Sequence record: PX907401.1
DNA length: 44,007 nucleotides
Origin: a phage
Reading direction: 5' to 3' (one strand)
Both the position numbers and the translations under genes were made by a program. Shown here in pieces: positions 3,450-44,007 of the stretch (position 1 is its first letter; each line of letters opens with the position of its first letter). A model generated the notes under the pieces. The model did no database searches. It worked only from the letters and a program-made list of their open reading frames with translations, and was not told the DNA's origin.

Positions 3450-3623
3450 TTATTCAGTCTCAGACGAGGGGGGCCGTTGACCCCCGTCTAGTCTGAAAGA
3501 CTGGGGTTTGTCCCGCCTGTCCCGCTCCTCTGGAAGCCGCGCCATCCGGGGCGGGACGGGGGTGCTGTCCCGCTTTGTCCCGCCCCTTGTTTGTCCCGCT
3601 TTCTGTCCCGCTTACTTTATGCA
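3450..3623. repeat. Dispersed repeat element, copy A (about 174 bp; second copy at 31279-31452)
   Basis: Near-identical 5' 75 bp and 3' 48 bp shared with copy B; contains six direct TGTCCCGC heptamers plus one inverted, and hairpin-capable segments. Confidence 0.85.
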
Positions 3624-3696
3624 GTTTTATTGCATAACTATTCATTACAGCTACACGACACGGCAACCAATACGACCAGTTAAAAACGCCCAAAAT

Positions 3697-3836
3697 GGCA
3701 ACCAATGCGCGCAAAATTTAACCTTTTAGCGATATGGGAATTCCCATATCGGCAACCAATGCGCGCAAAATTTAACCTTTTAGCGATATGGGAATTCCCA
3801 TATTGGCAACCAATGCGCGCAAAATTTAATCTTTTA
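3697..3836. repeat. Tandem direct repeat, 54-bp unit x about 2.6, each unit with a perfect 18-bp palindrome ATATGGGAATTCCCATAT and a GCAACCAAT motif
   Basis: Units at 3697-3750, 3751-3804 and partial 3805-3836; palindromes at 3732-3749 and 3786-3803; overlaps the primase stop codon (3826-3828). Confidence 0.9.
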
Positions 3837-6090
3837 AATCATCATCGGTCGCTGAAAGCGTGATGGGTATGTTCGTTTTGATGACGATATTAGACGACCC
3901 ATAGATGGCCCCGGTGTGTGGGTCTGTGTAAAACCCAAGCACGCCGCGCTCGACCATATCGTCTATTGCCTTCGTCGATGTGCCACCTTTTGCCAATCCC
4001 GCCTGGCGGACGATTGCCGATTTACTGAATCCGGTATGGTCCGGGTTATCTTCCATCAGTTTTTCCAGTGCCGCATAAAGCACTTTCTCTTTTTCGTTGC
4101 GCGGTCCGGCGGCATTCTCTTCCTTAACTGCGGCTTTGCCAGCGGCCTTTGCTTGCTCAATGGCGAACGGTGCCAGGGCGACCGGTACGAGATAAAGAGT
4201 CTCGTCGCGTGGCGTGGATGCAATTGGCTTGACGTCCCAACCGGCAACCACGTCGCCGAAGTCAGGCCCGGTGCTGGTGGACTGGTGTGATTCGAACGCT
4301 TCGGACTTGCGGAGATCCACCTTAACCTTGCACTTGAGCAGGACGAAGCCGCGCGGCGCTTGCTTGATGCCGTTACGTGCCTTTTCGTGATACAGGTTCA
4401 ATTGGCCCGGCTGATTGTCGTCCGGTTGCTCCAGGAAGAACGCAGAATCGACAGCGCCATGCAGCGCGCCGGACCCACGGGGAGATCTGCTGCCGTTTGC
4501 ACCCTTCGCCGGGTGGTGGATGACGCCCGCACTGCCGCCTGTATTTTCCGCAATGGCCTTCAGCGCTTTGACCACTTCACCCATATCGCTGGCGTTGTTC
4601 TCGTCGAACGGTTTTGCATTGGCGGACCGCAGCGCAACAGTCTGGTTGAGTGAGTCGAACGCCACCAGGCCAACCGGTTCGCCGTTAGCGGTGCGGTTGA
4701 TGAAGCTGATAACTTCGCGCAAGCCGGACTTGTTGGTGATATCCCAGCCGCGTGACTGCAGATCGATAATGTGCAGCTTGTCGAGGTCGTGCTCATATTT
4801 AATCTGCAATGCTTCTTTGCGCTGGTTAGAGGCTTCACCACCTTCCGCATCGAAATAGAAGCAATGAGACTGGACGACCTTCGCACCGCCGAACGGAATA
4901 CCGGCGGCAACCGCGCCCATCTGCCCCAGCACATAGAAAGACTTACCAATGTTCGACTCGCCCGCCATATACCAGGTCGATTTGAAGTTAATCAACCCCT
5001 CGATAATCGGGTCGTGCTTACTGAACAGCGCAACCGGCTCGTTATCCAGATCCGCATCAGTACACACGCCGTACTCGTCGCCGTCTCCGACCGCATCAAC
5101 GATATGTTCATAGCACGATTCCACTTCCTCATCGTCCAGTCCCGGAAGGATGGCGGCGATTTGCTTACGTGACATGTTGTGCGGCTCGACGTTCAGGTGG
5201 TCCGGGATCCCGATAAGACGTAGCGCCAGGTGCTGGTGTCTGTTCAGTTCCGAGCAACACTCGTTGCCGGTGTGCATACACTTGAAACGGATCTCGCCAT
5301 CCTTAACCATGATAGCGGTTGACCCTTCGCCACTATGCAGATGTTCGTTCGGGCATGGCACTTCATAACCCCGACCGGACGACAGCGGTTCGAATCCTGC
5401 CTGGAAGCACCAGTCCAGAATGCCGTCCGCCACGCCGTCATCGCCCTGGGTTAGTTCGCGGCGTACTTTCTCTTTTTCCACTCCCAGCTTATCAGCCAGG
5501 CGAAGCAGACGACGGACGCGGGCACGCTTGCCGTAGTGGCACTTAATAACGGACTGCTGGTGTGGCAGGTACATCAGGCGGTTTGTATCTTTCGTGCAAT
5601 CGTCGAAGTCCACATCTGACAGACCCAGTTGGTGTAATAGTGCATACTGGACGCGGCCCAGGTCTTCAGCCGGTACAGGCTTGTCAGTGAGCACCAGGAA
5701 ACGGGCGCAACGCGTGCCGCCCTTCAGCGGGTGGCGGTCGCCGGTGGTGGTGTGAAATACGTGTTCCAGACCCGAGTCGATGAACGCCTTACGGCAGCGG
5801 CGCAGGGTGCGGGTGTCGGTGCGGTCAATATCAAAGAACAGGATCGAGCGGTCCACCGCACTGGTCTTACGACGCAATCCGTCACTGGTATACGCCACGA
5901 TGCCATCGGCCTTACGCTTGCGGCGCGCATACTCGGCTTTATCTTCCGTCTTGTTGATATGCACCGAGGAGATTTCTTTCGCATCTTTGATAAATTCGAA
6001 AAACTCATCGGTCGTCATCTGGAAGTTTTCCGCCCTGGCTTTTTCGCCTTTTTTAGCGGGTTTTGTTACAGCGAATTTAATCAAGCTCAT
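3826..6090 (-). CDS. Bifunctional DNA primase/helicase (primase-like N-terminal domain, P-loop ATPase C-terminal domain)
   Basis: 754 aa; FFDIDRTD acidic motif in the N-terminal domain; Walker A GESNIGKS and Walker B-like VAFDSL in the C-terminal domain. Confidence 0.8.
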   Translation of the reverse strand: MSLIKFAVTKPAKKGEKARAENFQMTTDEFFEFIKDAKEISSVHINKTEDKAEYARRKRKADGIVAYTSDGLRRKTSAVDRSILFFDIDRTDTRTLRRCRKAFIDSGLEHVFHTTTGDRHPLKGGTRCARFLVLTDKPVPAEDLGRVQYALLHQLGLSDVDFDDCTKDTNRLMYLPHQQSVIKCHYGKRARVRRLLRLADKLGVEKEKVRRELTQGDDGVADGILDWCFQAGFEPLSSGRGYEVPCPNEHLHSGEGSTAIMVKDGEIRFKCMHTGNECCSELNRHQHLALRLIGIPDHLNVEPHNMSRKQIAAILPGLDDEEVESCYEHIVDAVGDGDEYGVCTDADLDNEPVALFSKHDPIIEGLINFKSTWYMAGESNIGKSFYVLGQMGAVAAGIPFGGAKVVQSHCFYFDAEGGEASNQRKEALQIKYEHDLDKLHIIDLQSRGWDITNKSGLREVISFINRTANGEPVGLVAFDSLNQTVALRSANAKPFDENNASDMGEVVKALKAIAENTGGSAGVIHHPAKGANGSRSPRGSGALHGAVDSAFFLEQPDDNQPGQLNLYHEKARNGIKQAPRGFVLLKCKVKVDLRKSEAFESHQSTSTGPDFGDVVAGWDVKPIASTPRDETLYLVPVALAPFAIEQAKAAGKAAVKEENAAGPRNEKEKVLYAALEKLMEDNPDHTGFSKSAIVRQAGLAKGGTSTKAIDDMVERGVLGFYTDPHTGAIYGSSNIVIKTNIPITLSATDDDLKD

Positions 6091-6100
6091 TGTCGTGGCC

Positions 6101-6430
6101 TTACTTAGAAGTTTTATTATTGCGTACCCAGGAGCGCACTGTGCTCTGATTAATTCCGGTCAACTCGGCAATCATCGCCCAAGATTTGCCCTCGGCGCGC
6201 AAACGGATAACCTGCTTTTTGTATTCTTCCATTTCTTCATTGTGTTTTTGCAGCTTGCTTGCTGCTGTACCGTTGAGCAATTCCAGCCTGGAGCGTAATT
6301 CTTTTTCGACACTGCGCAGTCGTTCGATTTCAAATAACACCACCCCCACGGCATCGGTATAAGCCCATGACCGGCTTGTCTCACTGCAAACAGTCTTCGT
6401 TAACATTTCGATTGCGTCGTTTACATTCAT
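6101..6430 (-). CDS. Small DNA-binding protein with C-terminal helix-turn-helix (putative transcriptional regulator)
   Basis: 109 aa; coiled-coil-like N-terminus; C-terminal KSWAMIAELTGINQSTVRSWVRN resembles an HTH; GAGGG 8 nt upstream of the ATG. Confidence 0.6.
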   Translation of the reverse strand: MNVNDAIEMLTKTVCSETSRSWAYTDAVGVVLFEIERLRSVEKELRSRLELLNGTAASKLQKHNEEMEEYKKQVIRLRAEGKSWAMIAELTGINQSTVRSWVRNNKTSK

Positions 6431-10452: not shown

Positions 10453-13400
10453 AAGACTTCGAACGCCTGTTTCTCGACACCGAGACATTTAGCGGGGTGG
10501 ACCTGAAGAAAGTTGGGGCGTACGCCTACGCAGAGCACCCAACCACCGAGATTATGATTTGCACATACGCCATCGACGAGGGCCGCGTGCAGACATGGGA
10601 TTGCACTGAATCCCCCACAATGCCGCGTGAACTGCGCAAAGCGATCCGCCATGTATCCCGCAAGAAAGCAAAAATCGTGATGGCTAACGGCCTCCTGTTT
10701 GACCGCCTGGTTATTCGCGAGAAGTGGGGTATTGACCTGCCGGTAAGCCAGATCGAAGACACCATGATTATGGCCTTTCGCCACGCGCTGCCGGGTAGCC
10801 TCGATATGCAGTGCCAGGTGCTGGGCGTTGACGCAGAGCACGCGAAGGATAAGGCAGGCAAGGCGCTGATTAAACGATTCTGTAAGCCTACCCCTAAGAC
10901 CTACAAAATACGCCGCTACACTCGCGAGACTCACCCGGAAGAATGGGCCAAATTTCTGCGCTATGCCGCGCTGGATATTATCGCAATGCGTGAAGTCTAC
11001 TGGCGCATACCGGACTGGGGTAATACTCCGAAGGAAGATGAAATCCTACTTATCGACCAGTTGATCAACGACCGCGGCTTCTATGTGGACGTTGACCTGG
11101 CGAACGCCGCGATCAAAGCGGTGCAGGCGCATAAGGAAGAATTGAAGGAAGAAGCCTGGGAGCGATTTGGCGGTAAGCTGACCGGCAATGACTTCCTGCC
11201 AATCCTGCGTGATATCGCCCCGGCGTTCACGATCCACAACGCGCAGAAATCCACACTTAACGACCTACTGGAAGACCCGGACTTCCCGGACGAGGGCAAA
11301 GCGCTTATCGAAATGCGCCTCGGTGCGTCATCAACGGCATCTACTAAATACAATCCGCTTGTCAATGGCCTGTCCGCCGATGGTCGCCGCCGTGGTTGTC
11401 TTCAGTATGGTGGGGCAAAGCGCACGCTACGCTGGGCCGGTAAAGGCTTTCAACCTCAAAACCTGGCGCGTGGCGAGTACAGCGACGACCACGAAGGGAA
11501 GATTAAACGCCGCGAGGGTGAAAGCGACGTCTCGTTTTGGGTCCGGTCGCACATGCTCACCAACGGCATCAACTCCCTGTTACGCGGGACCGCACACTGG
11601 GCGTATGACATATCGAAGCTAACGGCCTCGACCGTTCGCGGGTGCATTATTCCGGCGAAGGGCAAGAAGTTTGTCGTAGCGGACTACTCCAACGTGGAAG
11701 GGCGTGGACTTGCCTGGATCGCTGGCGAGAAAACAGCGTTAATGGTCTTTAAGGCCGGTCGCGATATCTATTGCGAGACTGCCGGTAAGATGTTCGGCCT
11801 GGACCCGGACTACATTAAAGCCAACCGCAAGGACTTACGCCAGATCGGTAAGGCTTGCTTGCACCGCCATACCCAAGTATTGACCAATGGCGGGTTCAAG
11901 GATATTATGGCCGTAACATCAACGGATAAAGTATGGAACGGCGAAAAATGGGTGAGTACAAAAGGCGCGCACCTTATGGGGTGGAAACCAGTGATAGACG
12001 TGGACGGGGTCTTGATGACAGAAGACCACAAAATCTTGACGCATTCATGGAAGGAGGCAAGGCAACTCGTTTCAGACAGGTGCACGATGGCCCGCGCCCT
12101 GGCGAGAGGTATGGACGCCTGGTTATCCTGCGCGAATTACCAAAACGACAGGGGCACAGACAACTGCTGGCTCAATGTGATTGCGGAGCGATGCCAGGAC
12201 GCGTCGGGTATGACAACGTCCGAAGGGGTAAAACATCCCAATGCAACCTCTGCGCAATTGAAGCGACAAAGCGGTATCGTAAACAGTATTTTTGCTACGA
12301 TGACGCAATGCCAGACGATGCGCACAGAACGCGGCTGCTCAACCGGCTGTCCGCGGCAATATCACGAACGACAAACCCCCGCGCCAAAGGGTATAAAAAC
12401 TATGGCGGTCGTGGGATTGCCGTATGTGACGAATGGAAAAGAGATAAAAGGTCGTTTCTTCGCTACGTTCAAACGCTGGACGGCTGGGATAATCCAGACT
12501 TCGAAATGGACCGGGTCGATACAGACGGCAACTATGAGCCTGGAAACCTTCGGTTTGTCAGCCGTTCGGAAAACTGCCGTAACCGGCGCAGCGTGCCCGA
12601 GCTTCAGCGAAAGTGCGATGAAGCCCTTACCCGCATTGCTGAACTGGAACGGGAAGTTAACCTATTGCGAGCCGGTTTACGACCTGATTGATGTGGAAGA
12701 CGGAAACCGGTTCCTTATTGCGTCTAAGTCTGGTTTTCTGGTGGCGCATAACTGCGAGCTAGGCTTGGGCTATGGTGGCGGCGTGGCAGCGTTCTTGCAG
12801 TTCGCTAAAAACCTGGGCCTCGACCTGTACACTATGGCGGACGTGATGAAAGGCACGTTCCCGGATCACATTTGGGCGGCGGCGAAACGCGGCTATGAGT
12901 ACGCCCGCATTAACGAAGCGAAACGCCCACCGAAGCCTGGCAAGAAGGACGAGCGACCGACTTACATACTGCCGAAAAACGTATGGCTGACGTGCGACGC
13001 GATCAAACGTATGTGGCGAGAGGCCCACCCGAAGACGGTTGCCTTTTGGGCCGAGCTTGAGGACGCGGTGTTGTGTGCAATCCGCAATCCGGGCAAAGCA
13101 TACTGGGCTGGCGCGAACGTTCGCCCGGATGGCAAGAAAGCGCTCAAGATTGTTCGCACGAAGGCGAAGCACGACCCAACCTTCGACGAGGAGCGCGACG
13201 ACCCGGACGCTGCGGGGTGGTGGTTGAAAATTGAGTTGCCGTCGGGGCGCATCATGAGCTACCCCGGCATCGCGCTGTCTGTCACGACAGAGATTGACGA
13301 GGACACCGGCAAGAAGCGCACCAGCACACGCATTAAATATCAGGGCGAGAATCAGACGACGCGCCAGTGGGGGTTCCAGTACACCTACGGCGGCAAACTG

Positions 13401-13637
13401 ACGGAGAACATCGTACAGGCGTTGTGCCGTGATATTCTCGCATGGTCCATGCCGGGCGTCGAAGCCGCGGGGTATGAAATAGTCCTGTCAGTACACGATG
13501 AACTGATCACCGAAGTGCCCGACACAGACGACTACACGACAGAGGAGCTTTGCGCGCTGATGTGCGACCTGCCTGTTTGGGCGAAAGGCTTCCCACTTGC
13601 CGCCGAAGGTGATTGTATGTATCGCTACCGCAAGTAG
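10449..13637 (+). CDS. Family-A (Pol I-like) DNA polymerase with 3'-5' exonuclease domain, interrupted in motif B by an intein
   Basis: 1062-codon uninterrupted ORF; Exo I LFLDTETFS; motif A VVADYSNVEGRG; motif B RQIGKA / CELGLGYGG split by a 299-codon insert; motif C VHDE. Confidence 0.9.
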   Translation: MKDFERLFLDTETFSGVDLKKVGAYAYAEHPTTEIMICTYAIDEGRVQTWDCTESPTMPRELRKAIRHVSRKKAKIVMANGLLFDRLVIREKWGIDLPVSQIEDTMIMAFRHALPGSLDMQCQVLGVDAEHAKDKAGKALIKRFCKPTPKTYKIRRYTRETHPEEWAKFLRYAALDIIAMREVYWRIPDWGNTPKEDEILLIDQLINDRGFYVDVDLANAAIKAVQAHKEELKEEAWERFGGKLTGNDFLPILRDIAPAFTIHNAQKSTLNDLLEDPDFPDEGKALIEMRLGASSTASTKYNPLVNGLSADGRRRGCLQYGGAKRTLRWAGKGFQPQNLARGEYSDDHEGKIKRREGESDVSFWVRSHMLTNGINSLLRGTAHWAYDISKLTASTVRGCIIPAKGKKFVVADYSNVEGRGLAWIAGEKTALMVFKAGRDIYCETAGKMFGLDPDYIKANRKDLRQIGKACLHRHTQVLTNGGFKDIMAVTSTDKVWNGEKWVSTKGAHLMGWKPVIDVDGVLMTEDHKILTHSWKEARQLVSDRCTMARALARGMDAWLSCANYQNDRGTDNCWLNVIAERCQDASGMTTSEGVKHPNATSAQLKRQSGIVNSIFATMTQCQTMRTERGCSTGCPRQYHERQTPAPKGIKTMAVVGLPYVTNGKEIKGRFFATFKRWTAGIIQTSKWTGSIQTATMSLETFGLSAVRKTAVTGAACPSFSESAMKPLPALLNWNGKLTYCEPVYDLIDVEDGNRFLIASKSGFLVAHNCELGLGYGGGVAAFLQFAKNLGLDLYTMADVMKGTFPDHIWAAAKRGYEYARINEAKRPPKPGKKDERPTYILPKNVWLTCDAIKRMWREAHPKTVAFWAELEDAVLCAIRNPGKAYWAGANVRPDGKKALKIVRTKAKHDPTFDEERDDPDAAGWWLKIELPSGRIMSYPGIALSVTTEIDEDTGKKRTSTRIKYQGENQTTRQWGFQYTYGGKLTENIVQALCRDILAWSMPGVEAAGYEIVLSVHDELITEVPDTDDYTTEELCALMCDLPVWAKGFPLAAEGDCMYRYRK
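11856..12752 (+). other. Intein (protein-splicing element) within DNA polymerase motif B
   Basis: Starts with Cys (CLHRHTQVLTNGGFKDI), TxxH-like block (EDHKILTHSW), ends VYDLIDVEDGNRFLIASKSGFLVAHN followed by +1 Cys; flanks reconstitute the RxxxKxxxFGxxYG motif. Confidence 0.75.
11933..12691 (+). CDS. HNH-type (HNH_3/AP2-like) homing-endonuclease-like ORF in the -1 frame, entirely inside the intein
   Basis: 252-codon ORF; GERYGRLVIL...CDCG...QCNLC (Zn-ribbon-like) and GYKNYGGRGIAVCDEW...DRVDTDGNYEPGNLRFVSRSENCRNRR; the overlapping polymerase frame is also open throughout. Confidence 0.55.
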   Translation: MERRKMGEYKRRAPYGVETSDRRGRGLDDRRPQNLDAFMEGGKATRFRQVHDGPRPGERYGRLVILRELPKRQGHRQLLAQCDCGAMPGRVGYDNVRRGKTSQCNLCAIEATKRYRKQYFCYDDAMPDDAHRTRLLNRLSAAISRTTNPRAKGYKNYGGRGIAVCDEWKRDKRSFLRYVQTLDGWDNPDFEMDRVDTDGNYEPGNLRFVSRSENCRNRRSVPELQRKCDEALTRIAELEREVNLLRAGLRPD

Positions 13638-13668: not shown

Positions 13669-13947
13669 ATGACACCCGAAGGCAAGATACAAAGTCACCT
13701 GATGAAGCTGGTTAAAGCCGTTGGGGGATTCTGCCGAAAACTGGCATGGGAGGGGCGCGCAGGTGCGCCCGACCTGATTATTATCATCAACGGCAAAATA
13801 GTGTTCGTCGAAGTGAAGCGCCAAGGCGGAAAACCGAAGCCGCACCAGGTACGAGAACATGAGCGAATGGCCCGCCGTGGTGCTGACGTTCGCGTCATCG
13901 ACAACATAGCCGACTGTGATTTATTGGTTGCTGAATTGGTCGCTTAA
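13669..13947 (+). CDS. VRR-NUC domain nuclease (PD-(D/E)XK fold)
   Basis: 92 aa from the ATG at 13669 (GGAA about 9 nt upstream); GAPDLIIIINGKIVFVEVKRQGGKPKPHQ motif. Confidence 0.7.
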   Translation: MTPEGKIQSHLMKLVKAVGGFCRKLAWEGRAGAPDLIIIINGKIVFVEVKRQGGKPKPHQVREHERMARRGADVRVIDNIADCDLLVAELVA

Positions 13948-14168: not shown

Positions 14169-14191
14169 GGCGGGCTTGTCCCGCCATTTTT
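14169..14191 (+). terminator. Rho-independent terminator
   Basis: GGCGGG-CTTGT-CCCGCC followed by ATTTTTG; the stem contains the TGTCCCGC heptamer also found in the dispersed repeats. Confidence 0.55.
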
Positions 14192-14198: not shown

Positions 14199-14423
14199 AT
14201 GACGATGAAAGAACATTACCGACTCACCAAGCTGGGCGAATGTAAACCGGGCGATCGCGTATGGTTTATCGCGGGCATGAATGATCCGCTGCCGTTGACG
14301 GTGTGCTGGCAAAAATTTAAGAGCTTCCGGGCTACCGGTGTGCACATCGGACACGCCACCAACTACGACGCTACAAAAAGGAACTGGAACAGTGAAACCG
14401 AAGTCTGGAAAAAGGCGGAATAA
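14199..14423 (+). CDS. Hypothetical protein (about 74 aa)
   Basis: ORF with GGGAGA upstream; start could be ATG 14199 or 14205. Confidence 0.5.
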   Translation: MTMKEHYRLTKLGECKPGDRVWFIAGMNDPLPLTVCWQKFKSFRATGVHIGHATNYDATKRNWNSETEVWKKAE

Positions 14424-14427
14424 AGAA

Positions 14428-15852
14428 ATGGCACGATTCCGACGCCGCGAATATCAGAAGTTGATAACCGCGTTCATCCTCAAGCATAAGCGATGCAATA
14501 TATGGGCGACAATGGGGTCGGGTAAAACCGGCGCGACCATGTGGGCGCTGAATAAAATGTTCCAGACCGGCATCCTGTCCAACCAGGAGGACCGCGTACT
14601 GGTGCTAGCCCCGCTGCGCGTTGCGTCCGGTACATGGCCCCCGGAACAGGAGAAATGGCGCTTCCCAGCCTTGCTGGTGGTAGACGGCACTGGGTCAGAG
14701 AAGGACCGCATCGCGGCGCTTGAGAGCGACGCTAACGTGGTTTGTGTTAACTACGATGTGGTTGAGTGGCTGGTCGACTATTACGGCGATGCGTGGCCCT
14801 TTACGGTCGTTGTTGCCGATGAATCCACTAAGCTGAAAGGCTATCGTAGCAAGCAGGGGAGCAAGCGCGCCCGCGCACTGGCAGCGATTGCACATAAACA
14901 CGTCAAGCGCTGGATTAACCTGACCGGCACACCAGCGCCAAACGGGCTGAAAGACTTATGGGGCCAGACGTGGTTTGTCGACGGTGGCGAACGACTCGGC
15001 AGTAGCTATAAGGCATTTACCGACCGCTGGTTCATTAGCAAGCCTGTTAAGCCTGGCAGCTTCACTATGCAGCACGCTCCGCTAAAGAACTCCGAGAAAG
15101 AAATACAACAACGCCTGTCTGACGTATCACTAACCGTTGACGCGGCTGAATACTTCGGGTGCGACAAGCCAATCTATACGCCGGTTGTTGTGGATCTACC
15201 GAAGAAAGCCCGCAAGATTTACGACCAGTTTGAAAGCGAGCTATTTGCCGAACTGGAAAGCGGAACAGTGGAAGCGGCTAACGCTGCGTCGAAGACCATC
15301 AAGTGCCTTCAGCTTGCTTCCGGCGCTGTGTATAAGGTGGACGAAGACGGCGAACGGACCGACGAGTGGGTGAAGATTCACGACGCCAAACTGGACGCGC
15401 TGGAAAGTATCGTGGAGGAGTTGAACGGCGCGCCGTTGCTCGTTGCGTATCAGTATAAGCATGACCTGGCACGTCTTAAGAAGAAATTTCCGCACGGCGT
15501 CGCGTTGGGTAAGGGTAAGCAGGGCAATAAGGATATGGAAGCGTGGAACAGGGGCGAGATCCCCATCATGTTTGCACACCCGGCATCGGCAGGCCACGGC
15601 CTTAACTTGCAGGACGGCGGACATCACCTGGCAATCTTCTCCGATACCTGGAACTTTGAGCATTTTTCGCAGATCGTTGAACGTATCGGGCCGGTTCGCC
15701 AGATGCAGGCCGGACACCCTCGACCGGTATTCGTCTACATTATCCAGGCGCGCGGGACACTGGACGAATTGGTCGCCGAGCGTCGCGACAGTAAGCGAGA
15801 TATACAGGACGACTTGATGGAATACATGAAAGCTAAAAAGGCGCGCAAATGA
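14428..15852 (+). CDS. SNF2-like superfamily-2 helicase/ATPase
   Basis: ATG 14428 (MARFRRREYQKL); Walker A MGSGKTGA; DExx VVADESTKLK; NLTGTPAPNGLKDLW (SNF2-type motif III). Confidence 0.8.
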   Translation: MARFRRREYQKLITAFILKHKRCNIWATMGSGKTGATMWALNKMFQTGILSNQEDRVLVLAPLRVASGTWPPEQEKWRFPALLVVDGTGSEKDRIAALESDANVVCVNYDVVEWLVDYYGDAWPFTVVVADESTKLKGYRSKQGSKRARALAAIAHKHVKRWINLTGTPAPNGLKDLWGQTWFVDGGERLGSSYKAFTDRWFISKPVKPGSFTMQHAPLKNSEKEIQQRLSDVSLTVDAAEYFGCDKPIYTPVVVDLPKKARKIYDQFESELFAELESGTVEAANAASKTIKCLQLASGAVYKVDEDGERTDEWVKIHDAKLDALESIVEELNGAPLLVAYQYKHDLARLKKKFPHGVALGKGKQGNKDMEAWNRGEIPIMFAHPASAGHGLNLQDGGHHLAIFSDTWNFEHFSQIVERIGPVRQMQAGHPRPVFVYIIQARGTLDELVAERRDSKRDIQDDLMEYMKAKKARK

Positions 15853-16864: not shown

Positions 16865-16898
16865 ATTGGTTGCATAAGCATATTGGTTGCATTATATT
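16865..16898 (+). promoter_or_regulatory. Promoter with tandem ATTGGTTGCAT motifs (-35 TTGCAT, 17-bp spacer, -10 TATATT)
   Basis: ATTGGTTGCATaagcatATTGGTTGCATTATATT read directly. Confidence 0.5.
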
Positions 16899-18086: not shown

Positions 18087-18553
18087 AACTACTGATTTGT
18101 GATCTTGATGGCGTTATTAATGGTTCGAGTGATGCACGCGCCGACCTGGTGCCGGGTATAAAAACCAAATCAACATTTTGGGCAAAGTGGCACAAAGCGC
18201 ATGCACGCGAAGACCTGAACATGGATATGCTGCCGCTGTTGCGCATGTACAAAGAGCAAGGCTTCGAGATCGCGTATCTGACAAACCGGCAGCGCGAATG
18301 TTGGGACACGACCGCCGAACAACTGGAGGTCTTCCCCGCAGGCCGGTTGTTTATGCGCCACATGCTGGACGACACCCCGCCGCCAGAGTTTAAGGCGTGC
18401 GCCGTGTTCAAAATGGTCTGCTATGCGGACGTATCGGAACTGGTCGTCATTGAAGACTGTCCGAAGAACATCGCGGCAATTCGTCGGGCGTGCAGCGATC
18501 TGGTCCCGAAAATTTATGCGATAAACGTTGAAAAATTCACTTGCAACCAATAG
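18083..18553 (+). CDS. HAD-superfamily phosphatase-like protein
   Basis: 156 aa; N-terminal LICDLDGVI (HAD motif I DxDG). Confidence 0.55.
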   Translation: MKLLICDLDGVINGSSDARADLVPGIKTKSTFWAKWHKAHAREDLNMDMLPLLRMYKEQGFEIAYLTNRQRECWDTTAEQLEVFPAGRLFMRHMLDDTPPPEFKACAVFKMVCYADVSELVVIEDCPKNIAAIRRACSDLVPKIYAINVEKFTCNQ

Positions 18554-18570
18554 GTTGGTTGCACTATAGT
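18541..18570 (+). promoter_or_regulatory. Promoter (-35 TTGCAA, 18-bp spacer, -10 TATAGT) with inverted GCAACCAAT / TTGGTTGC motifs
   Basis: TTGCAACCAATAGGTTGGTTGCACTATAGT read directly; overlaps the 3' end of the upstream gene. Confidence 0.45.
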
Positions 18571-22056: not shown

Positions 22057-22358
22057 TATGCTCGCTCCACAAAAACAATAACGTCACATTCAGATGCGGA
22101 GTAAACCCCGCCACCTACCGCACTTGCCGCGGAAACCGTGATAGTGTTCCCGCTGGCGGTTATTCTGCGTCCTGGCCCGACCGCGCCTTCATCCAGTGCG
22201 ACCACGTATCCGACCTTCATCCCCGCCGGTACAGGGAATGACCATGCGCCTGATTTTTGTCCTTCCGCAAGATGAATCCTTCCGATCACGCTTACCGGTT
22301 TAATGCCGTAGTTGTTTGGGCGTCCTTGCGCGTCCCACGTTGCTATACCGAATGCCAT
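22056..22358 (-). CDS. Hypothetical protein (100 aa)
   Basis: ORF directly downstream of the J-like gene. Confidence 0.45.
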   Translation of the reverse strand: MAFGIATWDAQGRPNNYGIKPVSVIGRIHLAEGQKSGAWSFPVPAGMKVGYVVALDEGAVGPGRRITASGNTITVSAASAVGGGVYSASECDVIVFVERA

Positions 22359-27950: not shown

Positions 27951-28585
27951 CTTACGAATCCAATAGCTGTTTTAAGGGTGGCGGACACCGTTGCCGTGTT
28001 ATGCCCGTTGTCGGTGTACGACAAGCTCGAACGCTCGACCACGAATAAACCTGTTTCGCCATCCGGCGCGGTGACGACAAACGGCTTGACGAAGTGCCCG
28101 CGAAGGAAGTTGTAAACCAGTTTGGGGTTGCACCACTTGTCAGTAGTCAGCCCGATGAATTGCACGGGGAACTGTTTCGTTTCGGCGTTCGGGCCGTCCG
28201 CGATGTTCTGACCGTAACCGTTACCGAATTGCAATTCCTCGGACCGGAAAGCCAACTGCACGTCTCCGCCGCCTTGCAATTGCATGTGCCAGTAATAAGG
28301 CCATTCGTTTGACCGCGGGTCGTGCGCTTCGATTAGCTCATAAGCCGCACCGGCTTTTGTCGGTCCTGCCCAGTTATCAGCCAGGGTGATGACGGTGTTA
28401 GAGTTGAATGCCGCAATTTTTCCGGTGTAGTCGTTGCCGTCGATGCGGGTAAATACGCGGACCTTCCCGATCTCGCTCAGGAACGCCGTTCCCGCGCCCG
28501 TGACGGTCTTACTTCCCTTAGTTAGTGTGATTGTACCTTGTGCCATAAAAAAGCCCCCACGTTGTAGTGAGGGCCATTTTATCAT
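27947..28585 (-). CDS. Minor tail protein (lambda M-like position)
   Basis: ATGA overlap with the tape-measure stop; alternative internal start at 28546 (MAQGTITL). Confidence 0.5.
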   Translation of the reverse strand: MIKWPSLQRGGFFMAQGTITLTKGSKTVTGAGTAFLSEIGKVRVFTRIDGNDYTGKIAAFNSNTVITLADNWAGPTKAGAAYELIEAHDPRSNEWPYYWHMQLQGGGDVQLAFRSEELQFGNGYGQNIADGPNAETKQFPVQFIGLTTDKWCNPKLVYNFLRGHFVKPFVVTAPDGETGLFVVERSSLSYTDNGHNTATVSATLKTAIGFVR

Positions 28586-31215
28586 CGTTTGTAAAGTACA
28601 CCACCCGGTTTCGTCGCCTTCACGATCTCGGCCTTGACCGACTCAGTGATTTGCTTTCCGAACGCCTGCGCGGTGCGCGGGTCTGGTCCGCTAACACTGG
28701 TATCCGTCTTACCGGTCCCCATGTTAACGTTGGTCGTTACAATCATTCCCCCTACACCACCGGCAGCGGCAACTCCCAGTTTGCCGTCCGGGCCGCGCTT
28801 CAGTGGCATGATGGCTTCGGGGCCTGCCTCCCCCATCAATCCTGCGCCCTTAGCGAACGCCTGGACGCCATAACTGAAAAAGGTTGGCTGGCTTACCACT
28901 TGCCCCGAATAGGCTGCGAGATTGCCTCCTGCGTACGCTCCGCCGTCCGCATTCTTAGTGAGGCCGGAGAAGATAGCGCCGAACAATCCGTTTTTGCCGC
29001 CGAAAGCGCTAACGATGGACTTGAACGCCTGCGATGTAGCCAGCTTGATTAATTCGCTCAGGATGGACTTTACCATTTCCTTTGCGTTCAGCTTGCCAGT
29101 CTCGAAAAACTCGTCCATCGTGTCCTGCATAGCGCCGAACGTGAATTTTGTGAGTGACGACATCTGCATATAGCCGTTACCCATTTCATCAACACTATCG
29201 CGAAGCCCGCGACTAAATCCATCCCATAATGAGGCGTTAGCACCGGTCTGTGCTTCCTGCACTTCCCGCAGCGTAGACACCGCCTTGTCGATAGCGGTAT
29301 CACTAGCGCCGACACGCTGCAAGCGGTCTATTAGCTGCAATTCTTCGCGCAGGTTAGCCGCTTCGCGCGTAGACAGTGCGTAGCCCGCAGCGGTGGCCTT
29401 TAGCTCGGCGTTCTGATTCTTGAGGAACGCGTCGACCTGGGACTGGGCTTTGATCTGCTTCTCTTTCGCATCCAGTAATTTGGCTTCTTCGACAATCTGC
29501 TCGCGCACTTCCTTCACGCGCCCAAACTCCGCCATCTGCTGCTTTTCCGCTGCCGTTAGTACCCTTTCTTTGCTTGCAGCGATTAACTGCTCATTATCCG
29601 CGATCAGCTTGTTTAGTGCCGCTTGCGCGCGTTGCGTGCGGGTCTGCGTCGATGCGTTGGCTTCGATCTGCTTTCCAGACTCACGAAGCTGGGCTAATTC
29701 GCTTCGCGCGACTTCCAGCATTTTCAGCCCGGCATCGACTCGAACTGCCGCCGCTTTTTTTGGTGCGGGGTCTTTGTAACGCTCGTTGACCTGCTTCACC
29801 GCCTCAGCAAGCTCTTTCTCGTCAATCACGCCGCGCTTATTCAGCAAATTTAGGCGGGCGATCTCGTCTGCTCGCCGCTTCGCGTTGGTTGCGTACTCCT
29901 TCTCAAACGCGGCGCGGTCGCGGGCGGTGCGGTTTGCCTCTTCGTTCGCCTTTGCTGCTTCGTCAGCGGCACTTGCGTTGTCTCGCTCTGCACGGTTGCG
30001 CAGGGTGAGCGACGCCACTACTTTTTCCTGGGCTACCAGTTCGCTGTAAAGCATGTTAATACGCGCTTTCTGCGCTTCGGTCATCACCCCACCGGCAGCG
30101 TTTACCGCTTTCATCTCGGCATAGTAAGCCGTGGTCAGTCGCTGCAATGATTCACGCGCTTTCATCTCTGACTCATTCGAGGACTGCGCGCGCCCGACAT
30201 CCAGGATGGCATCCCACATAGATTTAGCTGCCGATGTAACGACGTTCATCGACCGCTCAAGCGTACCCATGTTGGACTTGATCTCATTGGTCATAGTGGT
30301 AAACGACGCTGCGGCTGTTTTGTTAGCCAGCGCCACCGCTTCGGTTTCGCGACCAGCCGTCACTAGTGACTGCACCTGCTGGATCTGCGCTTCGTTTACG
30401 ACGTGATACTTATCCGCCAGCGCACGCAGTCCGCCAACGGGGTCGGTTGACAGCTTCGCCACCGCCGCCACCACATCCTCGATCGGCTGGCTGGACACCT
30501 TCGCAAAGTCATTAACTACCTTAGCCAATGCGCCGAAGTCACCACCCGCTTTCACACCCGCCGCCGCCAGCGCCTGGATTGTGTCACGCGTCTTGCGGAA
30601 TGATCCGCCCATTCGCTCGGCGTTCTCGGATAACACCAGGATCTGGTTTGCAGTGAGGCCGGAAATGTTGCCGGAAAGCGCCAGCGTCTTGTTAAGCGCG
30701 GCGACCTGGTTCTCTGCGCGGGACGTAATTGCCACGCCCACGCCTAACGTTGCCGTTACGGCGGCAAGGCCGATCCCTACTGGGCCGAGGAATCCCGCAA
30801 CATAACGCAGCGTGTTACCCAGTCCGCCGAACGCCCCAGTTAACTGCGGTAACTGCTGAAGCATAACGCGGTGTACTGGCATCCCCATCTCAAGCGTAAC
30901 TGCGATATCCTGTAACTGGAATGCGGCGTTACGCGAGGCAAAGCCCAGGTTTTTGGTCGACATGCCTAACCTGTTGGCGAGTCGTTCCTGTTTCGTCATG
31001 CCATCGGCGGCGCGCTGCGATTCGTTTGCCAGCTTTTCCATTCCGCCCGCGGCGTCACTCGTCACCTTTTTGGATTTGCCGAGGGTGTCGTTTAATTTCT
31101 TAACCTTGTTTTCTGTGTTCTCGGATTTCTGTGCGAAGGAGTCCAGCACAGTATTTGCCGTTCTGATTTGTGCAACATCAGCCTTCAGCGTGATGCCTGC
31201 TGCTTGATCTGCCAT
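28582..31215 (-). CDS. Tail tape measure protein
   Basis: 877 aa, largely alpha-helical with coiled-coil character; hydrophobic Gly-rich C-terminal region; follows the G/GT chaperone. Confidence 0.85.
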   Translation of the reverse strand: MADQAAGITLKADVAQIRTANTVLDSFAQKSENTENKVKKLNDTLGKSKKVTSDAAGGMEKLANESQRAADGMTKQERLANRLGMSTKNLGFASRNAAFQLQDIAVTLEMGMPVHRVMLQQLPQLTGAFGGLGNTLRYVAGFLGPVGIGLAAVTATLGVGVAITSRAENQVAALNKTLALSGNISGLTANQILVLSENAERMGGSFRKTRDTIQALAAAGVKAGGDFGALAKVVNDFAKVSSQPIEDVVAAVAKLSTDPVGGLRALADKYHVVNEAQIQQVQSLVTAGRETEAVALANKTAAASFTTMTNEIKSNMGTLERSMNVVTSAAKSMWDAILDVGRAQSSNESEMKARESLQRLTTAYYAEMKAVNAAGGVMTEAQKARINMLYSELVAQEKVVASLTLRNRAERDNASAADEAAKANEEANRTARDRAAFEKEYATNAKRRADEIARLNLLNKRGVIDEKELAEAVKQVNERYKDPAPKKAAAVRVDAGLKMLEVARSELAQLRESGKQIEANASTQTRTQRAQAALNKLIADNEQLIAASKERVLTAAEKQQMAEFGRVKEVREQIVEEAKLLDAKEKQIKAQSQVDAFLKNQNAELKATAAGYALSTREAANLREELQLIDRLQRVGASDTAIDKAVSTLREVQEAQTGANASLWDGFSRGLRDSVDEMGNGYMQMSSLTKFTFGAMQDTMDEFFETGKLNAKEMVKSILSELIKLATSQAFKSIVSAFGGKNGLFGAIFSGLTKNADGGAYAGGNLAAYSGQVVSQPTFFSYGVQAFAKGAGLMGEAGPEAIMPLKRGPDGKLGVAAAGGVGGMIVTTNVNMGTGKTDTSVSGPDPRTAQAFGKQITESVKAEIVKATKPGGVLYKR

Positions 31216-31278: not shown

Positions 31279-31452
31279 TTATTCAGTCTCAGACGAGGGG
31301 GGCCGTTGACCCCCGTCTAGTCTGAAAGACTGGGCTTTGTCCCGCTTGTCCCGATCGGCTGAAAACCGCGGCAGCACTGGCGGGGATGGGGTGCTGTCCC
31401 GCTTTGTCCCGCCCCCTGTTTGTCCCGCTTTCTGTCCCGTTTGGTTTATGCA
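31279..31452. repeat. Dispersed repeat element, copy B (see 3450-3623)
   Basis: Same orientation as copy A; lies in the intergenic gap between the GT stop (31512) and the tape-measure start (31215). Confidence 0.85.
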
Positions 31453-31511
31453 CGAAATTCGAATAGGTATGCACATTTCATGGGTGGGACAAAACGGGAC
31501 GTCCCGCTTCA

Positions 31512-32203
31512 TTATGCGGGGTTCTGCTGCGCCATCTCATCAAGCGCTATTCGTTCCATTAGCTTGATATCTTTAAACGCGCGCTGTTCGTTTTCGATAC
31601 CGTGCATCTTAAATAACCACTCCAGCACGCCGTAGTCGATGCCGTATGCGCCACCAAATCCGGTGCGCCATTGCGTGGAGCAATCTGTGAAGACTGCGAC
31701 TACCTTCGCGTTGTCGGGCCACAGCGCAACAGGTGGACAAACATCTTCGGGGGCCGCGCCCCATAAACTTGCGGCTAAATCTTCGGAGGGTGGCGGCGGG
31801 CCATAAAAGCGTCGCGCCGCCTCAATTAGTTTTTTTCACGCAACCCCATCAGTTCGAGATAGTACGACGTGTGGAACACACCGAACGCGCGTGGATAGTT
31901 GACCACCAGGCGGCGGACGTTCTCCGCGTTAAATTCGTCCGGCAGATTCCAGCCTTCTGCGACGTGCATGATGGCCTCGACCATAACGTTAAAGCCGTCC
32001 GGGTCATTGTCGTCATATTCCGACAGCTTGCGTTCGGTGTCCTGCATGGTCTGCGAAAACTCGTCGATCGGGCGGTGGCGTACGGTAAACGTCATCTTGC
32101 CTGGTTCGATCTCACCAGGGCGCGGGATCTCAATCGGCAGCTTAAAGGTTGGCTTAGGGTCAAGTGTGAAGAGTGGTGCTTTAGCCATTGTAGTATTCTC
32201 CAA
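31512..32203 (-). CDS. Tail assembly chaperone GT-like fusion made by programmed -1 ribosomal frameshift
   Basis: Hand translation of the -1 frame after the slip gives a stop-free 105-codon extension (LIEAARRFYGPPPP...EMAQQNPA) ending at 31512. Confidence 0.65.
31826..32203 (-). CDS. Tail assembly chaperone (lambda G-like)
   Basis: 125 aa between the major tail and tape-measure genes; ends ...MGLREKN with slippery heptamer A AAA AAC just before the stop. Confidence 0.75.
   Translation of the reverse strand: MENTTMAKAPLFTLDPKPTFKLPIEIPRPGEIEPGKMTFTVRHRPIDEFSQTMQDTERKLSEYDDNDPDGFNVMVEAIMHVAEGWNLPDEFNAENVRRLVVNYPRAFGVFHTSYYLELMGLREKN
31829..31835 (-). other. Slippery heptamer A AAA AAC for -1 frameshifting (G to GT)
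   Basis: mRNA reads CGU GAA AAA AAC UAA; X XXY YYZ aligned to the zero frame. Confidence 0.65.
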
Positions 32204-37066: not shown

Positions 37067-37096
37067 TTGCAATCCGCGTATTGGTTGCACTATATT
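37067..37096 (+). promoter_or_regulatory. Promoter for the clamp-like gene (-35 TTGCAA, 18-bp spacer, -10 TATATT) with tandem ATTGGTTGCAC motifs
   Basis: TTGCAAtccgcgtATTGGTTGCACTATATTGGTTGCAC read directly. Confidence 0.5.
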
Positions 37097-37125
37097 GGTT
37101 GCACACCAACAACGAGGATATGACA

Positions 37126-40710: not shown

Positions 40711-42096
40711 TTAGTAGAAGTCTACAGTTGGAACAACGGCGATCGGACGAATCACTGGGAACAGGTGCGCAATTGGATAGCCCGCGGCATCGTTCATGTG
40801 GTCCACACCGGCGGTTTTATCCGGCTCGCCTTTCTTCAGGTCGTAAACCTGCTGTTCCAGACATTTCGCTAGTGTAGGGCATTTATCCAGGTTGACAAAA
40901 TACTGGCGCACGCCCTTCGAGTTGCACATCATCGTATTCATCGCGATCAATCGGTCTTTCACAGGTGGGTTAACACTGTCGTATTCTACCTCGAAGCCTG
41001 CGTCTTCCAGTTGCGCTATATCGGACGACGATGCGTTGACAGTCTTGCGAGACTTGCCGCTGCTATCCGGGTAAACGACTACCCGACCGGCAGCACAATG
41101 ATCGGGGTAGCGCTCCTCGATCGCCTCAATCATAGCCGGGGTATCAAACAGGTCTACGAATTCATCCACTGCGTGAATCTCGTCGCGGAACTCCTTGTTT
41201 TCGGTGATGCGCTGCCGTCTGACGTACACGACCGCCGCCATCTTCGTGACGTTAAAGTCCATACCGATAATCAGCGTGTCGTCCGGTTGCACTTCTTCGG
41301 TGCTGGCGTTCTCCTCGCGGTTGAACATCTTGTACACCGCGCCCGACGTAAGGTTGACAAACAAGCCGTTCAAGTACGCATCAATCAGGTTAGCCGGGTA
41401 CTGACTGCGCAGCGTGTCGATAAAGTCCGCCGGTAAATGGTGGTTGTCCGTGGTCTTCGCCCGGATCAAGCGTTTCTGGTTGTCTTTCTCCACCTCGAAA
41501 ATTTGGTACATCGCCCGGTAGCCTTCAGGCGTTGACACGATGACGAACTGGCGGACGAAGCCAGCACGCAGACGACCGAGCAATTTGTGATATGCCGCCA
41601 GCGCGACGTCTTGTTTCGTGGTGTCGAACTCGTCGGCAACAATCCACGCGGCGTTGATACCGATCAGGCGGGTATAGTTCTCCATTGACTCACAGATAAC
41701 GCGAGTCCATTTGCCTTTCACCAGCACGTTGTAAATCTTGTCCTGCTTATTGAACTTCCACCGGAAGCCAGCCTCGTCGAATGCCTTCTCCAGTTCCGGA
41801 TACATGATTTTAACCAGGAGTGGAATAGTCGGTTCGGTCACGATGCCGTCATAACCAGGGTTAAGTGTCAGAAGCTGGATGACCTTACGTGCGGCAACCC
41901 ATGACTTGCCACCGCCGAAGCCGGAACACAGGCCGAGGATTTTAGTCTTCGTGTCGCGCAGTAGTTCAACCTGGTGCGGCAAGCAATCTGGCTGGTAAAG
42001 ACGCACAGCCTGCGCAACGCGGGTCGGGCGTGGCGGTCGGTTACGCTTTGCGATCGCTCGTTCAAGGGCGCGGTGTTCTGCCGCATAGTTACGCAT
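40711..42096 (-). CDS. terL: Terminase large subunit
   Basis: 461 aa; Walker A GLCSGFGGGKS, Walker B WIVADEFD, C-terminal nuclease-like acidic motifs. Confidence 0.85.
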   Translation of the reverse strand: MRNYAAEHRALERAIAKRNRPPRPTRVAQAVRLYQPDCLPHQVELLRDTKTKILGLCSGFGGGKSWVAARKVIQLLTLNPGYDGIVTEPTIPLLVKIMYPELEKAFDEAGFRWKFNKQDKIYNVLVKGKWTRVICESMENYTRLIGINAAWIVADEFDTTKQDVALAAYHKLLGRLRAGFVRQFVIVSTPEGYRAMYQIFEVEKDNQKRLIRAKTTDNHHLPADFIDTLRSQYPANLIDAYLNGLFVNLTSGAVYKMFNREENASTEEVQPDDTLIIGMDFNVTKMAAVVYVRRQRITENKEFRDEIHAVDEFVDLFDTPAMIEAIEERYPDHCAAGRVVVYPDSSGKSRKTVNASSSDIAQLEDAGFEVEYDSVNPPVKDRLIAMNTMMCNSKGVRQYFVNLDKCPTLAKCLEQQVYDLKKGEPDKTAGVDHMNDAAGYPIAHLFPVIRPIAVVPTVDFY

Positions 42097-42668
42097 TATT
42101 CACCCTGGCCTTTGCCGGTAGGCTCCACAACGACGTCGCCGTTATCATCTTCGTCGTCATCCAGCGGCACATCGTCGCGGACGCCGTGGTTTGCTTTAAG
42201 CAGGAATGTAGCGAAGCCCGCAGCGATGGTTACGCCGCCAGCTTCCATCAGGAATGTTTTCTGTAGCTCCATAGCGTCAGCCATAGCCTCGGCGAACTCC
42301 TCATGTGCGCGCGCCCAGCGATACAGGCAAGCTACGCCCACGCCGATTTCCGCGGCAAATCGACCGAAGGTTGGCATTTTGTTGCGGGGGATTACTTGCG
42401 CAGCGCCTTTATCGGAGTAGTTTACCTGCCAGGCGTCGGCGTCGGCAAAATAGCGGCGAAGCTGGTCGCAGTAAACGGATCGGTAGTCAGTAGGTCGTCC
42501 ACATTTGCCGCCTTTACGGCGCTTTCCGTACTTGATTTCAGGTCCGAGATTGGTATGCTCGGTTTGCTCGCCTGGTTTACGGCGCGGGGTTACCGCTACT
42601 CGTCCGTCCAGTTTGGCGCGTCGGCCCTTAACTTTGATTTCTGCCATGATATAAGCCCTTTTGTGCAT
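42096..42668 (-). CDS. terS: Terminase small subunit
   Basis: 190 aa; HTH-like FGRFAAEIGVGVACLYRWA; acidic C-terminus; stop overlaps the terL start. Confidence 0.65.
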   Translation of the reverse strand: MHKRAYIMAEIKVKGRRAKLDGRVAVTPRRKPGEQTEHTNLGPEIKYGKRRKGGKCGRPTDYRSVYCDQLRRYFADADAWQVNYSDKGAAQVIPRNKMPTFGRFAAEIGVGVACLYRWARAHEEFAEAMADAMELQKTFLMEAGGVTIAAGFATFLLKANHGVRDDVPLDDDEDDNGDVVVEPTGKGQGE

Positions 42669-42961: not shown

Positions 42962-44007
42962 TCATTTCAACATTTCCGGGCTAATGGTTAAGCGCGCTAC
43001 TTCGCCGTAGTTGGCGCTATAGGTGATGACGTTTGCGCTGCGACCTGACATCCAACCGCCACGACTGGCGTAGGCGTCTTTCGCTGCGAGCGTCCTGTGC
43101 TGTTCAACAATCATGTTGCGGGATTCAACAATCTTCTGGTGGTGCAAATGGCCTACGTGCGCGTAGCTGTATTCGCTCGACCCGAAAGCCTGTCTGAATT
43201 TAGCGATCATAACCTGCTCGATAACATCGAATCGCGCTTTGTGCCCGTGGTGGAAAAATAGTGTGGTCTTACCGTGCTGCACCATTTTGTAGACGTCCGG
43301 GGACGTATCCACATCGACGCGCGGCTCGTTCTCGTACAGCGTGTTGAACATCTCAGCAAGCCAAATCATGCCCGACTCGTCATGATTCCCCTGGACGATT
43401 AGCAGTTTGACTTTGTGGTGTTTTTGCAGCGCCAGTTCGACGACGTTGCGCACCATGCGAATCATGTAGCGGACCAACTTCTGGTATCGGGTGTCGGCGT
43501 CCAGTATGTGACCACTTGCCGGAGTGACAGCATCGAGGCTATCAAAGTGGGCCATATCACCGAGGATATTAATTACGGCAGTGCCTGCGTCCGGGGCGCG
43601 GGCGAAGGCTTCGACAAACCAGCGGTAAAACAGGTCTTCGGCAATCGCCATATCCCAGTCTTCGCCAGTCTCCTCGCCCCAGGCCAACATGCCCAGGTGG
43701 AAGTCTGACACAGTGTACAGGTTGAGTAGGTCGAGCGCCTGGATCGGGACTGGCGGGGCGCTTACTGGTGCTGCCGGTGTGATTTCGCTGTTCATGCCCT
43801 CGACAACAGCGCGCATGGCTTCAAGCTGGCGCTCCTTGTCCTGCTCAGTGATAACCCACGACATGACCTCTTCGCCATTTCCGCGCACCAGGGCCGATAC
43901 GCGCTTAACCCCAAACCCATCGGCAACGCGCTTGCGTATTACGGCATCGTTGCCGTGTCCAATGCCTTTTTTCGACAGGCGGGCTTTCCGCATATAAACA
44001 TTGCGTA
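42962..44007 (-). CDS. Calcineurin-like metallophosphoesterase, truncated by the window edge (N-terminal HTH segment is at 1-168)
   Basis: Motifs SDFHLG, GDMAHFD, GNHDE, GHLHH read in the translation; the ORF runs into the terminal repeat. Confidence 0.75.
   Translation of the reverse strand, partial: RNVYMRKARLSKKGIGHGNDAVIRKRVADGFGVKRVSALVRGNGEEVMSWVITEQDKERQLEAMRAVVEGMNSEITPAAPVSAPPVPIQALDLLNLYTVSDFHLGMLAWGEETGEDWDMAIAEDLFYRWFVEAFARAPDAGTAVINILGDMAHFDSLDAVTPASGHILDADTRYQKLVRYMIRMVRNVVELALQKHHKVKLLIVQGNHDESGMIWLAEMFNTLYENEPRVDVDTSPDVYKMVQHGKTTLFFHHGHKARFDVIEQVMIAKFRQAFGSSEYSYAHVGHLHHQKIVESRNMIVEQHRTLAAKDAYASRGGWMSGRSANVITYSANYGEVARLTISPEMLK
43938..44007. repeat. Terminal direct repeat, identical to 1-70
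   Basis: Same 70-nt string as the window start. Confidence 0.9.

Follow-up and report, generated by a model that had tools for sequence, protein, structure and literature searches.

At oriV of IncQ (RSF1010), which employs the RepA helicase, iterons are combined with an AT-rich segment, and conserved hairpins serve as priming signals. P4 encodes one multifunctional primase-helicase, alpha, that possesses a C-terminal DNA-binding domain, and its two separate regions ori and crr, one of which is gene adjacent, both contain a short repeat in direct as well as inverted orientation. The origins of PICIs are located 3' of the gene for a primase/helicase-type initiator, sometimes a fused pri-rep, and consist of lineage-specific short iterons that flank an AT-rich region presumed to melt; P4 alpha and its origin are mentioned in the same source (PMC6092414). 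ORF904 of pRN1 is a winged-helix replication protein with an origin just downstream of its own gene that includes an essential stem-loop, and similar arrangements exist in some phages (PMC4234260).

Here, a 174-nt element of a phage genome is compared with these systems. The window, that is, the whole stretch of 44,007 nt that was analyzed (PX907401.1), contains two copies of this element, one of them at 31279 to 31452. It most likely represents a known kind of element, a candidate origin in the Dhillonvirus group; more specifically, comparison of sequences makes it somewhat probable that the 174-nt unit forms the core of a replication origin of the iteron type, which occurs twice in the genome and is bound by the primase-helicase. 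The searched literature contained no paper that analyzes these repeats or defines a Dhillonvirus origin, and no report of binding or origin activity in any Dhillonvirus.

Anatomy and conservation of a two-copy repeat

The first 70 nt of the window (1-70) are exactly identical to the last 70 nt (43938-44007), so that the window represents a circular assembly (or a circularly permuted genome) of ∼43.9 kb. By BLAST, the phage belongs to the genus Dhillonvirus (HK578/SO-1-like coliphages). A block of minus-strand genes extends from ∼6430 down through position 1 and onward to ∼19938, and encompasses the primase-helicase gene (3826..6090) along with lysis, terminase, head, and tail genes. Outside the subject of this analysis, the DNA polymerase ORF (10449-13637, with an internal ORF at 11933-12691) exceeds its counterparts in Ioannina and UAE_MI-01 by ∼900 nt, with a break in the PolA match beyond approximately amino acid 470. 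The SO-1 record classifies the polymerase insert as a type I self-splicing intron carrying an HNH endonuclease. In the present genome, the reading frame is uninterrupted, a group I intron is not detected by Rfam, and the internal ORF lacks a Pfam match, so the insert could be an intein or another in-frame insertion.

A 174-nt direct repeat occurs as copy A at 3450..3623 and as copy B, whose limits coincide exactly with the interval 31279-31452. The two copies are 89% identical, with no indels, and are separated by 27.8 kb or, the other way round the circle, by 16.1 kb. Copy A is located 203 nt 3' of the primase-helicase stop codon; the order is helicase stop (3826), AT-rich block (3612-3662), and iterons (3611-3509). 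Copy B takes up the entire space that separates the tail-chaperone frameshift product, which ends at ∼31512, from the tape-measure gene (28582..31215, minus strand), and is upstream of the latter. Thus, copy A lies directly 3' of the initiator/helicase gene, whereas copy B precedes the tape-measure gene, and both head gene blocks and are oriented the same way as transcription. Three 54-nt tandem repeats (3689..3850), each containing both GGCAACCAATGCGCGC and a palindromic GATATGGGAATTCCCATATC, extend across the helicase stop codon into the interval between the helicase gene and copy A; these may be part of the origin or form a regulatory array.

Each copy comprises a GC-rich hairpin, a small hairpin, two heptamer sites, a center of ∼35 nt, and four direct sites, with an AT-rich block next. 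In copy B, the imperfect GC-rich hairpin occupies 31291..31318 (AGACGAGGGGGG, loop CCGTTGA, CCCCCGTCT) and the small hairpin 31319..31331 (AGTCT-GAA-AGACT). Sites 1 and 2 (TGTCCCGC and TGTCCCGA) are on the plus strand at 31338..31354, followed on the same strand at 31395..31440 by sites 3 to 6 (three copies of TGTCCCGC and one of TGTCCCGT), which are 10, 16, and 12 nt apart. Exact direct GTCCCGC is found at 31339, 31396, 31406, and 31422 (n = 4), and the two other sites match at 6 of 7 positions (GTCCCGA at 31348 and GTCCCGT at 31434). In copy A, the big hairpin is at 3462-3489, the small one at 3490-3502, and the iterons at 3509..3611 on the plus strand, with direct TGTCCCGC at 3509, 3518, 3566, 3576, 3592, and 3604. 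The central segment differs between the copies and holds an inverted site that is exact in copy A (GCGGGAC, 3551-3557) and degenerate in copy B (GCGGGGA, 31380-31386).

The AT-rich block after the sites begins with TTTATGCA. In region B, this block spans 44 nt (31440..31483), is 63.6% AT compared with 45.7% for the genome, contains TTATGCA, and is a candidate melting region. A distal iteron set follows at 31484..31507, consisting of an inverted TGTCCCAC and the palindrome CGGGAC/GTCCCGC, that is, three sites, two of them inverted, so that the layout of region B is six sites, the AT-rich block, and three sites. In copy A, the block (3612..3662) is 66.7% AT and includes an inverted repeat, TTATGCA (3617-3623) and TGCATAA (3631-3637); GTCCCGC sites lie on one side of it only, and repeats of a different motif, GCAACCAAT, on the other. 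Two words in the AT-rich block of region B, TTATGCACG and GTATGCACA, are one mismatch from the DnaA-box consensus TTATNCACA; they lie at 31446-31454 and 31467-31475, 21 nt apart, and were noticed post hoc among 26 such words in the window. In copy A, DnaA-like words are found only at two mismatches.

The clustering of the heptamer is real and far beyond chance. GTCCCGC occurs 17 times in the window compared with 8.3 expected, a number reached in 1 of 100 shuffles, and 12 of the 17 occurrences are inside copies A and B. A single 8-mer has six same-strand copies within 110 nt, against a maximum of three in 100 dinucleotide shuffles. These counts bear out the enrichment that the initial annotation had proposed to check, and both hairpins that it described, as well as the array that it quoted (31392-31439), are present. 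Its five to six direct GTCCCGC per copy hold for copy A, with six exact sites, and for copy B if the two imperfect sites are added to the four exact ones; the inverted GCGGGAC that it placed in each copy is intact in copy A only, and the distal set of region B holds more inverted sites. The unit it took for a heptamer becomes an octamer once the leading T is counted, and the element it called dispersed is repeated, but in two copies only. The spacing of roughly 10 to 15 bp applies loosely, to intervals of 9 to 16 nt, but the start-to-start distances in both copies are 9, 48, 10, 16, and 12 nt, and the sites are therefore not strictly helically phased. The heptamer is indeed part of the stem of a terminator-like hairpin at 14169-14191 (GGCGGG-CTTG-TCCCGCC followed by ATTTTT), but the suggested link of this stem to the arrays is most simply a coincidence. 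GC skew, which had been put forward as a guide to the origin, follows gene orientation and marks neither copy.

The element is present in 159 phage records, typically in two places each. In an alignment of 33 unique copies, the GTCCCG cores, the stems of both hairpins, and the TTTATGCA..TGCATA..TAT.CA block (also GAATA..TAT.CA) are nearly invariant, and the spacers between heptamers, the loop of the big hairpin, and the central segment are variable, a pattern that fits discrete protein sites. The apparent invariance of the hairpins is inflated because the hairpin sequence was itself the query for the IMG/VR loci (L124-L149); the same conservation pattern is nevertheless seen in the BLAST-found records L001, L003, L150, and L151 and in L157, which was found only via its helicase (68% identical). 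The small hairpin is invariant in all copies, including those of these five records, none of which was selected by hairpin, and the big-hairpin stem of another relative, L193, shows one compensatory change (AGACG..CGTCT to GGACG..CGTCC). Over 139 positions, copies A and B differ by 13 substitutions within a genome compared with 17.2 between genomes (permutation P < 0.0002); being more alike within than between genomes, the two copies evolve in concert. The same two elements are the repeat_region features "region A" and "region B" of the SO-1 record (NC_013600), which are described there as mutually similar "direct, inverted and palindromic repeat sequences," to which the record assigns no more than a "possible ..." function.

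A coding reading of the element (a 77-aa ORF at 31279..31512 on the minus strand and one of 84 aa in copy A) was rejected: the two copies are open in different frames, neither ORF has a Pfam match, 6 of the 33 copies differ by 1 to 2 nt in length, which breaks the frame, and substitutions cluster in spacers rather than at third codon positions.

Lineage-specific repeats and the primase-helicase

The candidate iteron binder and initiator is the 754-aa primase-helicase (3826..6090, minus strand), with a RepA-like AAA_25 core at amino acids 357 to 531. Its C terminus models as a winged helix by structure prediction and fold searches, and this predicted domain (approximately amino acids 666 to 737; 3880..4095, minus strand) is the candidate iteron-recognition module. 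An alternative candidate binder is a 109-aa protein of the HTH_23 type encoded just upstream of the helicase (6101..6430, minus strand).

To trace the repeat beyond the Dhillonviruses, viral contigs were scanned for two closely spaced GTCCCGC. Many unrelated contigs were found to contain dense direct TGTCCCGC arrays together with inverted copies. The primase-helicase is the only protein of the window with homologs adjoining the arrays (25 to 31% identity over the helicase core), apart from an unrelated, weak match of a DEXX-box helicase (14338..15852) ∼2.3 kb from the L106 array. In nine contigs (L025, L031, L056, L059, L062, L064, L068, L096, and L104), the array directly follows a RepA-like primase-helicase gene, and in L025 and L104, it overlaps the 3' end of that gene. 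T precedes GTCCCGC in all nine, an inverted iteron pair often surrounds a short palindrome, for example, GGGACACCCCTTAGGGGTGTGTCCC, and the C termini of their helicases share an RKAFxRA..L..G.I..VW pattern. The array-linked proteins combine Prim-Pol or Zn-ribbon/Toprim primase domains with AAA_25; a common small HTH protein was not found beside the foreign arrays. In a second group (L078, L084, L092, L106, and L118), the array lies within an ORF of 250 to 360 aa with weak winged-helix matches, which is reminiscent of lambda, where ori is within gene O. No homology was detectable between the foreign and the Dhillonvirus helicase C-terminal domains (hhalign probability, 1.4%), which implies that the same motif would be read by apparently unrelated domains, or by something else.

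Because the foreign arrays had been selected by motif, helicase homologs chosen without reference to the motif were also taken (n = 5; 43 to 68% identical). In all five, the helicase gene is followed by a gene-free gap of 360 to 650 nt that contains a repeat of its own: the GCGGGAC element with hairpins in L157 (68%), TTGCGAGT/ACTCGCAA in L158 (48%), GCTGCCAAC/GTTGGCAGC in L159 (46%), TTCCGCACA/TGTGCGGAA in L160 (46%), and, in STP-1 (43%), seven copies of GGGGAGA with a similar AT-rich TTATGCA..GAATAG block. Thus, the repeat in this gap differs among all five helicase lineages, namely, the Dhillonvirus/L157 group and the four that have other iterons, a correspondence that is confounded by phylogeny. 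Behind the helicase genes of the Jersey/Kaguna type (30 to 34% identical), no array was found, only a terminator and an opposite-strand gene.

The start of the putative recognition helix differs along the same lines. It is kept as GG-T/S-x-T-K/T in the lineages with GTCCCGC iterons and reads NYKK, KRRP, RYSD, or DRYK in those with other iterons, so that the recognition helix changes where the repeat changes, a covariation likewise confounded by phylogeny and shown by the small HTH protein upstream of the helicase as well. Identity of the winged helix drops to ∼29% while that of the whole protein is 44 to 50%, indicating that this domain diverges faster than the rest of the helicase. Given the lineage-specific repeats and the differing recognition helices, the iteron changes with the initiator. 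The position of copy A, the lineage-specific arrays of the relatives, and the foreign arrays abutting primase-helicase genes together underlie the reading of the element as an iteron origin. They also lend comparative weight to the suggestion in the initial annotation that the repeats are initiator-binding iterons, with the binding itself presumed from sequence.

In such an origin, several protomers of the primase-helicase would bind the direct and inverted (T)GTCCCG(C) sites via the C-terminal winged helix. The RepA-like hexameric helicase would thereby be concentrated and assembled beside the 64 to 67% AT block, which would melt; the helicase would then load, and the N-terminal primase would start synthesis. 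The invariant GC-rich hairpins may form on the unwound DNA and provide priming or loading signals or a boundary.

Among the described systems, PICI/SaPI origins resemble region B in the two iteron sets that flank an AT-rich block and copy A in the gene-adjacent position. Unlike these, the present element belongs to a virulent 44-kb siphovirus rather than a satellite island and occurs twice, the tail operon harboring the second copy. Its copy A has GTCCCGC sites on a single side of the AT-rich block, and conserved GC-rich hairpins are attached to the element. As in P4 with its ori and crr, one short repeat is found in both orientations in two separate regions, and this also applies to L193 and, with another repeat, to L158. 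However, the P4 repeat is a different octamer, and alpha is a helicase of a different class from the RepA-like AAA_25 protein found here. In Pfam, the helicase matches AAA_25 only; a PDB sequence search gave no match to alpha, and fold searches with the C terminus returned generic winged-helix domains, with the C-terminal domain of alpha not among the top matches. As these searches revealed no homology to alpha, the resemblance is one of function and not of membership. The pRN1 system is similar in that a multifunctional winged-helix replication protein has its origin 3' of its own gene, but there, a prim-pol with an SF3 helicase is paired with a 100-nt stem-loop and no iteron arrays, whereas here an AAA_25 protein is paired with iteron arrays and short hairpins. 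Finally, the helicase gives a weak sequence match to RepA (1G8Y; E = 0.4), but IncQ divides the work among three proteins (the binder RepC, RepA, and RepB') and has 20-bp iterons, in contrast to the single fused protein and the 7- to 8-bp sites of the phage, and the similarity is an analogy only.

Alternative roles of the element

The main rival to an origin is control of transcription where the late and tail operons begin, which we regard as unlikely. The heptamers would then be operator or activator sites for a phage regulator, such as the 109-aa HTH protein, and the hairpins, together with a weak terminator, would set transcription or attenuation at these blocks, for example, lowering the dosage of the tape-measure protein. 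The location of both copies upstream of gene blocks, in the orientation of transcription, is explained equally well in this manner, and the upstream small HTH protein switches family in the lineages with other iterons, that is, where the iterons change. Between copy B and the start of the tape-measure gene is an extended -10-like TGATACAAT, but it is not conserved in copy A or in L157 and L193, and consensus scans revealed no promoter or terminator within either copy. The annotation of PTXU06 includes a weak terminator (-9.5 kcal/mol) at the spot homologous to the distal set of region B. In addition, the element of L193 stays beside the tape-measure gene despite a gene inserted upstream. Conversely, six to nine sites with an AT-rich block would be unusual for an operator, and the foreign arrays track helicase genes without a common small HTH partner. 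Moreover, the motif that is dispersed at intergenic, promoter-like sites is a different one, GCAACCAAT. The palindrome CGGGACGTCCCG, followed by TTTTG (31495-31511, minus strand), is located right after the chaperone stop codon and could attenuate transcription into the tape-measure gene.

The GCAACCAAT motif itself has 17 exact copies in the genome and 29 with at most one mismatch, compared with 12 expected. Its sites (282, 2719, 3274-3389, 3663-3814, 6619, 13923-13943, 16865-16890, 18543-18562, 21076, and 37080-37102) are dispersed intergenically, often as inverted pairs overlapping promoter-like hexamers, and relatives whose iterons differ (L157, L158, L193, and L195) share the motif. Its features suggest a phage-specific motif for a promoter or regulator, comparable with the intergenic 21-nt repeats of phage TLS (PMC11447400).

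A pac site, at which the small terminase subunit would bind the repeated heptamers as it does the hexamer repeats of P1 pac, had been raised by the initial annotation in the form of terminase recognition sites and appears quite improbable. The arrays of the element do resemble those of P1 pac, where short-repeat arrays flank a central region. Dhillonviruses are reported to package by the headful mechanism, one of them with a preferred pac site (PMC9022532, PMC13348001, and PMC10059673), and no paper in the searched literature gives a pac coordinate. Several GenBank records start near the element: PQ658967, MK373789, and MK373791 begin 100 to 250 nt beyond copy A, and NC_073074.1 (L151) starts inside copy B; however, such starts coincide with the first gene after a noncoding region and so may be a matter of convention. 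A headful pac would be expected as a single site in or next to the small-terminase gene. Instead, there are two copies per genome, neither of them in or next to terS (42096..42668), from which copy A is ∼4.7 kb away, and across lineages and foreign contigs, the arrays follow helicase genes, not terminases. The terminase interpretation is not supported.

A structured RNA on the minus-strand transcripts, involved in processing, stability, or antitermination (nut/put-like) and using the GCGGGAC repeats as protein-binding RNA motifs, is still less probable. In its favor, the two copies have the orientation of transcription, the hairpins combine conserved stems, including one compensatory pair, with a variable loop, and the folding z-score is approximately -3 on either strand. 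The window gave no Rfam match at the gathering threshold, a relaxed Rfam search of 3250-3900 produced only weak, spurious matches in the 54-nt repeats and none in copy A, and a tRNA scan of the window detected nothing relevant. Neither copy contains a U-tract terminator, and in relatives, complementarity between the inverted heptamer and its predicted partner is not maintained. Conservation falls on short direct repeats separated by variable spacers, as is typical of DNA sites, and foreign and lineage-specific arrays adjoin helicase genes whatever the transcript context.

Least probable of all is a nonfunctional or selfish repeat, that is, a duplicated intergenic segment, a MITE-like insertion, or a recombination hotspot whose copies remain similar through gene conversion alone. 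The copy number of only two, the sharp boundaries, and the concerted evolution fit this view, but both copies are retained in 159 records and in the lineage with a 68%-identical helicase, the conservation is site specific rather than uniform, the element is absent from E. coli genomes and plasmids, and direct repeats 16 to 28 kb apart would promote lethal deletions, so that their retention points to selection. A host repeat (REP/ERIC/MITE) or a plasmid origin was rejected, with 0 matches in 5,426 E. coli genomes and 72,556 plasmids.

The second copy and implications for Dhillonvirus replication

Under the iteron-origin reading, copy A, 3' of the helicase gene, would be the ancestral, gene-linked origin, and copy B would act either as another origin or, by analogy with P4 ori/crr, as a remote partner in cis that is bridged to copy A. 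A second array is found in some of the relatives. In L193, from the lineage with the 68%-identical helicase, a copy is likewise situated directly upstream of the tape-measure gene; there (4470-4855), an opposite-strand gene, a moron-like insertion, separates the tail chaperone from the copy B element and is followed by a GCAACCAAT-rich region. In L158, the array peculiar to that phage occurs twice, at 22098-22175 and 12320-12400, with 9.8 kb between the two; one follows the helicase gene and the other a Mu-F-like head gene. In STP-1, only one array and no second copy was found. The two-site layout is therefore recurrent but not universal. A search with the N terminus of the tape-measure protein returned only close relatives. 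Copy B may be a second origin, a partner of the P4 crr type, or an element with a role in transcription of the tail operon.

A bolder proposal, which we consider speculative and rather doubtful, is that Dhillonviruses have a two-site origin in which the gene-linked copy requires the one in the tail operon as a distal partner, the primase-helicase forming the bridge between them, and that replicons combining TGTCCCGC iterons with a RepA-like primase-helicase form a widespread, undescribed class of origins across primase types.

Dhillonviruses are common therapeutic and model coliphages, and several are members of the BASEL collection; a concrete candidate origin and a candidate initiator domain make their replication testable. 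For genome engineering and rebooting, neither copy should be deleted, and the small "hypothetical proteins" that automated annotation calls across the element can be corrected. A helicase gene followed by lineage-specific iterons amounts to a simple rule for finding origins in many uncultivated phages. If the proposal of an obligatory partner in the tail operon is true, such a two-site origin would couple the initiation of replication to the late operon, and the conserved tail-operon copy could reveal a P4-like two-site mechanism in a virulent phage.
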